DNA of 64,000 bases. Source: Escherichia coli. GTDB lineage: Bacteria; Pseudomonadota; Gammaproteobacteria; Enterobacterales; Enterobacteriaceae. The stretch is taken from assembly GCF_017348835.2 (NCBI RefSeq), contig NZ_CP071375.1. One strand, written 5' to 3'. The translations under genes and the position numbers were made by a program. Positions 27,173 to 28,056 of this stretch are shown here, piece after piece. Numbering within the stretch: the stretch's first letter is position 1; the number at the start of each line of letters is the position of its first letter. Under the pieces are notes generated by a model that was given only the letters and a program-made list of their open reading frames with translations, was not told where the DNA came from and ran no database searches.

Positions 27173-28056
27173 TTATAACGTTACGGAAGCCGTTTTTTCT
27201 TCTGTCGCCATCTCTTTATTTTTGCGTTGGTTGATTTCCTCAATAATCAACGCAAACCGTTTTTCATTGAGTGTGTAAAAGAATCCCATCGTCAATGCAG
27301 CAATAATTGCCAGTGCACAAGGCCAGATAAAAATGAGCTGACGCAAACCCTGTAATGTCGCATCACTTTGCGCGATGTTTGGAACATAACCGATTTGCGT
27401 CAGCATAATCCCTGGCAAGAAGCCAGCAAGTGCGGCAGAAATTTTACGAAAGAAGGTATAACCGGTATAAACAGAACCTTCGGCACGAATACCGGTTTTC
27501 CATTCACCGTAATCTACGGTATCTGGTACCAGTGCCCAGTTCAGGCTGTTTACAAAGGCCGTGCCAAAAAAGGCGACACAAGAGAACATGACGAAAGTGA
27601 AAGAGTTACTTCCCCAGAAATAATTCAGGATATCACCAACCGCCCATAGCACCATGCCAGCTAAATAAACCTGTTTTTTACCAAAACATTTTACAGTTAA
27701 TGGCACCAGTAATACGCCGATGAGGATGCATCCCATACTGAAGAATCCCATCCACGACAATAAATTAATATCATTCAGCACATACTGGGTGTAATAGACC
27801 TGAATCGCCAGTTTGATATTAAATGCCGCCAGGGTACACAAGTTAGCAATGCATAAAACCAGCAATGGCGGATTCCGAAATATCGCGCAAAATGATTTGA
27901 GAATACTGGCTTTATGTCCGGTTGGCGTTGTGTCCACATAATGCTCTTTGACGCCTCTGTAGCACAGCATCATAAAAATAAAGCCGCCAATGGAGAACAT
28001 AAGTGCCGCACAGGCATAACCGACGGTTGAGTCAGAAAAAAGCGACTGCAACGGAA
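27173..28056 (-). pseudogene. yihO: yihO (sulfoquinovose-cluster sugar:cation symporter), C-terminal fragment truncated by the IS
   Basis: Coding frame runs straight into the IS right end at 28057; the N-terminal half lies at 46172..46694 on the other strand, and the reading frame is continuous across the reconstructed junction (...AFIPLQSLFSDST...). Confidence 0.85.

Follow-up and report, generated by a model that had tools for sequence, protein, structure and literature searches.

Interruption of the putative sulfoquinovose transporter gene yihO by IS629 at the end of an inverted 17-kb segment in a porcine Escherichia coli lineage

Genes and features of the yihO locus

The window analyzed in this study is a 64,000-nucleotide stretch of E. 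coli DNA (contig NZ_CP071375.1) that contains the sulfoquinovose (SQ) gene cluster (the sulfo-EMP or yih cluster), yihO through csqR, and its neighbors. The positions of the features are given in Table 1. Counts of genomes given below refer to a set of 5,426 complete E. coli genomes.

Table 1 Positions of genes, repeats, and alignment blocks in the window
Feature	Position	Strand	Remarks
Block aligned with F2_81 locus L002 1-20457	7600-28056		Same orientation
yihN	25058..26323	+	MFS transporter pseudogene; internal stop at 25367-25369; adjoins ompL, outside the SQ cluster
ompL	26414..27106	−	Porin gene; full length, 93% to K-12; downstream of yihO 3′ fragment
yihO 3′ fragment	27173..28056	−	Last 2 nt of codon 175, codons 176-467, stop
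TTC starting yihO 3′ fragment	28054-28056	−	Other copy of target-site duplication
IS629 copy A	28057-29366	−	1,310 bp; right end adjoins yihO 3′ fragment, left end adjoins CAT
CAT	29367-29369		Reverse complement of ATG; adjoins left end of IS629 copy A
Inverted segment	29367..46694		17,328 bp; opposite orientation relative to F2_81 and K-12
Block aligned with L002 37782-20455	29367-46694		Reversed; 99.988% identity
Island	about 30206-32249		Between fabY and yiiE; ~2 kb, absent from K-12
SopB-like ORF	30499-32397	−	632 aa uninterrupted; probably ~604 aa from Met28
csqR	35711-36496	−	Full length
yihV	36530-37426	−	Full length
yihU	37594-38490	+	Full length
yihT	38514-39392	+	Full length
yihS	39408-40649	+	Full length
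yihR	40716-41618	+	Full length
TauE/SafE-family (TSUP) permease gene	41679-42554	+	Between yihR and yihQ; intact
yihQ	42662..44698	+	Sulfoquinovosidase; intact
yihP	44744..46129	+	Intact paralogous GPH transporter; 64% to YihO, 98.3% to K-12 YihP
yihO 5′ fragment	46172..46694	+	523 nt; codons 1-174 plus 1 nt; ends ...TTATTC at IS left end
TTC ending yihO 5′ fragment	46692-46694	+	One copy of target-site duplication
IS629 copy B	46695-48004	+	1,310 bp; left end adjoins yihO 5′ fragment, right end adjoins ATG
yiiF	48005..48223	+	CopG/RHH protein; start is the duplicated ATG 48005-48007, K-12-type start
Block aligned with L002 37780 onward	48005 onward		Same orientation
Bases differing from RefSeq PE164	10232, 27724, 28949, 47112, 47845		

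The gene yihO was found in two fragments on opposite strands, each abutting one end of an IS629 copy, exactly at the coordinates given in the initial annotation. The ORF beginning with the ATG at 46172 encoded YihO residues 1-174 through position 46694, then ran into the IS and reached a stop at 46723. The 3′ fragment opened with TTCCGTTG... at the IS right end. When 46172-46694 (523 nt) was joined to 28053-27173 (881 nt), dropping one TTC, the product was an in-frame gene of 1,404 nt encoding 467 aa plus a stop. All 467 residues of its protein were the same as in intact YihO from E. coli F2_81, a close relative, and 465 of 467 (99.6%) were the same as in K-12 YihO (b3876). The fragments were complementary on the GPH:cation symporter profile TIGR00792 (437 positions): positions 1-156 were covered by the 5′ fragment (195.9 bits) and positions 163-437 by the 3′ fragment (321.1 bits; cut-off 231.35). 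Orthology with b3876 was further indicated by position, with the 3′ fragment adjoining ompL and the 5′ fragment adjoining yihP, the neighbors that yihO has in the K-12 cluster (ompL-yihOPQRSTUV-csqR). Rejoined, the gene has the length of its K-12 counterpart.

The uninterrupted coding sequence expected for a 12-helix transporter was lacking: a 1,310-bp IS lies in codon 175, and the halves are 18 kb apart. In this DNA yihO is a pseudogene of the GPH:cation symporter family. The break follows residue 174, at the end of one hydrophobic segment (162-180) and ahead of the next (187-205); in this predicted topology it separates helix 5 from helix 6 within the N-terminal bundle, away from the central loop. 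The 3′ fragment has neither its native start nor its native promoter. Judged from sequence, this pattern of matching halves and duplications cannot have arisen by chance.

The remainder of the cluster was examined by aligning K-12 proteins with the window. YihP through CsqR gave full-length alignments with no stops and 95-100% identity (for YihR, residues 4-306 of 308), and YihX, YihY, Dtd, FabY, YiiE, YiiF, and FdhE were also full length without stops. In the annotation by PGAP, the protein accessions of these genes were the same in the E. coli genomes PE164 and F2_81. The initial annotation had proposed that yihO was the only transporter lost and that the rest of the cluster looked intact. 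This held for yihP through csqR and for the TauE-like gene, but the adjacent MFS gene yihN is a pseudogene as well, and ompL is now detached from the cluster. The internal stop in yihN divides it into ORFs of 102 aa and 310 aa; because the same pseudogene is annotated in both PE164 and F2_81, this stop is older than the IS events described below.

The porin gene ompL comes last among the co-directional genes, from which it is now separated. In K-12, yihO, yihP, and ompL are strongly induced by SQ (PMC12608037); any SQ-induced read-through transcription into ompL may have been lost here. A promoter scan of the yihO-ompL spacer (27106-27172) found no minus-strand consensus match, and its counts were not above those of shuffled controls and were therefore uninformative.

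The TauE-like gene between yihR and yihQ has no counterpart in the K-12 cluster and had been regarded as an addition in this strain. That view was not borne out: the gene was present in 1,295 of the 5,426 genomes, O157:H7 included, and therefore is a common variant of the cassette rather than a strain-specific feature. The word "TauE" has no occurrence in a 2025 survey of yih cassette variants (PMC12608037). In other sulfoglycolysis clusters TauE/TSUP permeases have been proposed to export sulfonate or sulfite (PMC8873060), and the product here is a candidate DHPS or sulfite exporter.

The island between fabY and yiiE was found in 1,061 of the 5,426 genomes. PGAP splits the SopB-like ORF that lies in it into a "transposase" and a partial "hypothetical protein", despite the absence of any interruption. 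The 632-aa product had no sequence match in Pfam, NCBIfam, or PDB, and its family is small, with 54 matches among 1.84 billion representative proteins. Members of the family have invariant Cys, Asp, and Arg residues within a G-CKSAKDRT (CX5R) loop, and the P-loops of SopB/IpgD and mammalian inositol 4-phosphatases have the motif CKSxKDR (PMC3091653). An AlphaFold (AF2) model was confident (pLDDT 85.7, pTM 0.87), and a Foldseek search of solved structures with this model gave Salmonella SopB as the best match (8jzl_A, E = 9.7e-7, probability 1.0), followed by the P-Rex1 4-phosphatase-like (IP4P) domain and Legionella SidF. From the modeled fold and the motif, the ORF is likely to encode an unannotated phosphoinositide phosphatase of the SopB/IpgD type.

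Short inverted matches of 76-97% identity were also seen in intergenic DNA, at 16442-16566 and 48243-48377 (63-68 nt) and in a pair involving 26371-26405 (35 nt). These matches are similar to palindromic repeats of the REP type (GCCGGATAAGGCGTTTACGCCGCATCCGGC) and have no connection with the IS event.

The two IS629 copies and their target sites

Self-comparison of the window showed that IS629 copies A and B are 100% identical and inverted relative to each other, 17,328 bp apart. For assignment to IS629, a nucleotide identity of 95% or more to a reference was required across the whole ~1.3 kb; with the element of phage BP-4795 (AJ556162), annotated as IS629 OrfA/OrfB, the identity was 99.5% over 1,310 of 1,310 bp. 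Each copy encodes an OrfA of 108 aa and an OrfB of 295 aa. These matched the IS3 transposase model NF033516 at positions 1-86 (OrfA) and 93-369 (OrfB, 307.9 bits). In the PE164 record PGAP annotates the transposase as intact, a joined CDS with a programmed frameshift. The copies thus have both ORFs, a DDE transposase of the IS3 type, and the programmed −1 frameshift. The terminal inverted repeats read TGAACCGCCCCGG... at both ends. In its length, its two overlapping ORFs, its frameshift, and its 3-bp duplications, the element showed no notable difference from IS629, a member of the IS3 family that is abundant in E. coli O157:H7 and Shigella. About 26-31 chromosomal copies of IS629 were found in this pig lineage, counted as places per record.

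Copy B, on the plus strand, is flanked by ...GTGGCGTTTATTC on its 5′ side and by ATGGGCAGA... on its 3′ side. Read in the orientation of the IS, copy A is flanked by ...GGTATGGATATG on its 5′ side and by TTCCGTTGCAG... on its 3′ side. The flanking triplets are therefore swapped between the copies, in the arrangement TTC-IS-ATG and ATG-IS-TTC. The two target duplications, TTC and ATG, are 3 bp each when checked against the empty sites in F2_81; those of IS629 are 3-4 bp (PMC3271280). The TTC common to the two halves of yihO, pointed out in the initial annotation, was indeed single in the F2_81 empty site and doubled in the window.

At the other end of the segment, IS629 lies exactly at the K-12-type ATG of yiiF. 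The duplicated ATG keeps the start codon, and the native region upstream of yiiF is replaced by the IS end. In F2_81 the start assigned to yiiF by PGAP is 8 codons further upstream; such a start would be severed here.

Comparison with related genomes and the probable history of the locus

A query spanning the yihO/IS junction (27600-28500) was found whole in one of the 5,426 genomes, that of PE164 from a pig with diarrhea in Nanjing. The junction on the yiiF side was likewise found in PE164 alone, and because of this no genome with a single IS insertion, which would represent an intermediate, was present in the set; both junctions occurred together in that one genome. Over 40,901 aligned bases, 5 differed between the window and PE164 (99.988% identity), 3 of them inside the IS copies. 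Both fragments of yihO are already annotated by PGAP in PE164 as incomplete pseudogenes beside an "IS3 family transposase", so the pseudogene status of yihO is known from public annotation.

Two of the differing bases, 28949 and 47112, correspond to IS position 418 in the two copies, which is G here (OrfB ...YGGGP...) and T in PE164 (...YGVGP...). A difference shared by both copies points either to one assembly that was polished differently or exists in two versions, or to gene conversion between the IS copies. PE164 and the strain of the window may be a single isolate.

The next-closest genome after PE164, F2_81 (pig, Australia), has no IS at either site and has each triplet once (GAA/TTC at L002 20455-20457 and ATG at L002 37780-37782). 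Because the boundaries of the aligned blocks overlap in the F2_81 sequence, both triplets are doubled in the window, one with each IS copy. Gene order in F2_81 is that of K-12, ompL-yihO-yihP-yihQ-TauE-yihR-yihS-yihT-yihU/yihV-csqR-yihX-yihY-dtd-fabY-...-yiiE-yiiF-fdhE, and K-12 is colinear with F2_81 and opposite to the window in the orientation of the segment. The inverted segment carries yiiE, the SopB-like ORF, fabY, dtd, yihY, yihX, csqR, yihV, yihU, yihT, yihS, yihR, the TauE-like gene, yihQ, yihP, and the 5′ fragment of yihO. The GC-skew profile across it was noisy.

The swapped triplets, the empty sites in F2_81, and the opposite orientation of the segment together make two insertions followed by an inversion between the IS copies the most likely history. 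In this scheme one IS629 would have inserted within codon 175 of yihO, at the end of predicted TM helix 5, duplicating TTC, and another would have inserted in the opposite orientation at the start codon of yiiF, 17 kb away, duplicating ATG. Homologous recombination between the inverted copies would then have flipped the 17,328 bp, moving the 5′ fragment of yihO with yihP-csqR and leaving the 3′ fragment beside ompL. It is thus very probable that yihO is a recent null allele produced by IS629, with a second IS629 at yiiF and a subsequent IS-IS inversion. The initial annotation attributed the split to the IS and the inversion. Both are present, but the insertion alone breaks the gene, and the inversion merely separates the halves.

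The orientation of the 17-kb segment depends on the assembly, the segment being flanked by identical inverted repeats. The inversion could accordingly be an assembly artefact, or one of two orientations that co-exist, with yihO still broken by IS629. With arms that are 100% identical, an assembler or the cell itself could place the segment either way, and a misoriented segment would show the same swapped triplets. The PE164 layout is not an independent confirmation, because the sole other genome with this layout may come from the same isolate. Nevertheless, we consider an artefact or mixture very unlikely: the RefSeq record that matches the window is a finished "complete genome" in which ~30 copies of the IS were resolved, and inverted IS copies commonly give rise to inversions. 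With the segment in either orientation, yihO is broken. The same end product, with swapped duplications and identical inverted copies, would also result if a single inserted IS629 had transposed replicatively, within the same molecule, into the second site, which would produce the new copy and the inversion in a single step. This is not a known mechanism for the IS3 family, whose elements transpose by copy-out/paste-in via a circular intermediate; to our knowledge, transposition of that kind does not generate inversions of this type. A replicative event is therefore highly improbable, and two insertions followed by recombination remain the preferred explanation.

The locus has identical inverted copies exactly at both breakpoints, exchanged duplications, and the ancestral order kept in a close relative, as do IS-mediated inversions and pseudogenes in Shigella, O157:H7, and other IS-rich Enterobacteriaceae. 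What sets this inversion apart is its small size (17 kb), its local character, and its restriction to one strain. As an IS629 insertion with an IS-IS inversion confined to a single strain, the event is ordinary and a known kind of gene loss.

Sulfoquinovose uptake

The literature assigns SQ import to YihO and, as its likely role, DHPS export to YihP. These assignments come from knockout phenotype and prediction, not from transport assays, and the exporter role of YihP is putative. According to PMC6278857, which cites Denger 2014, a K-12 ΔyihO mutant fails to grow on SQ, aerobically or by fermentation, though yihP is present. The suggestion in the initial annotation that YihO is the importer agrees with these genetic data. 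A second intact copy of yihO, whose existence would have altered the picture, was sought and none was found: the 3′ half had a single occurrence in PE164, on the chromosome, and was absent from the E. coli plasmids in the collection.

Neither fragment (TM1-5 or TM6-12) would be expected to yield a working transporter. Complementation by the two halves as a split permease was considered and is unlikely, because the gene is cut within the N-terminal bundle and its 3′ part is without a native start. With no working fragment, the strain has probably lost YihO-dependent uptake of SQ, by analogy with K-12 ΔyihO, and an SQ-negative phenotype is likely.

Natural loss of yihO is found elsewhere in the species. 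The gene was absent from 1,536 of the 5,426 genomes, a number that fits the published "short" yih cassette (yihTUVW), which occurs in Nissle 1917 and in many pathogenic strains of E. coli (PMC12608037). The short cassette is without all of ompL-yihOPQRS, whereas here yihO alone was inactivated and the rest was kept. Because everything else was kept, the event appears to be recent, and it would be reversible only by precise excision.

The loss of yihO might have no functional consequence if YihP, the paired fragments, or another permease imported SQ or SQ glycosides. YihP is intact and a close paralogue (64% identical) whose assigned role as exporter is putative, and the 1,536 genomes without yihO point in the same direction. 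So does Nissle 1917, which lacks yihO-yihS and is reported to show low, slow growth on SQ that is comparable to that of K-12 (PMC12608037); YihO-independent routes, or impurities, may have contributed to that growth and could blur the phenotype. Against this, K-12 ΔyihO with an intact yihP fails on SQ under both conditions, the gene is broken within the N-terminal helix bundle and not at the central loop, and the 3′ fragment has no native start or promoter. We therefore regard a loss without consequence as unlikely. A preprint has linked yihO, without explanation, to high-level drug resistance. That the allele and the IS-flanked segment go beyond neutral decay, with loss of yihO selected in this IS629-rich porcine lineage, for example through such a link, or with flips of the segment altering the expression of ompL and yiiF, is extremely improbable.

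The locus is a clean textbook case of two IS insertions and an IS-IS inversion with exchanged target duplications, and has little meaning beyond annotation at the level of the strain. It predicts a porcine lineage that would not use SQ by the YihO route and yet retains every enzyme of the pathway. As a natural strain that is null for yihO and intact for yihP, it could help to test the unproven assignment of YihO as importer and YihP as exporter.
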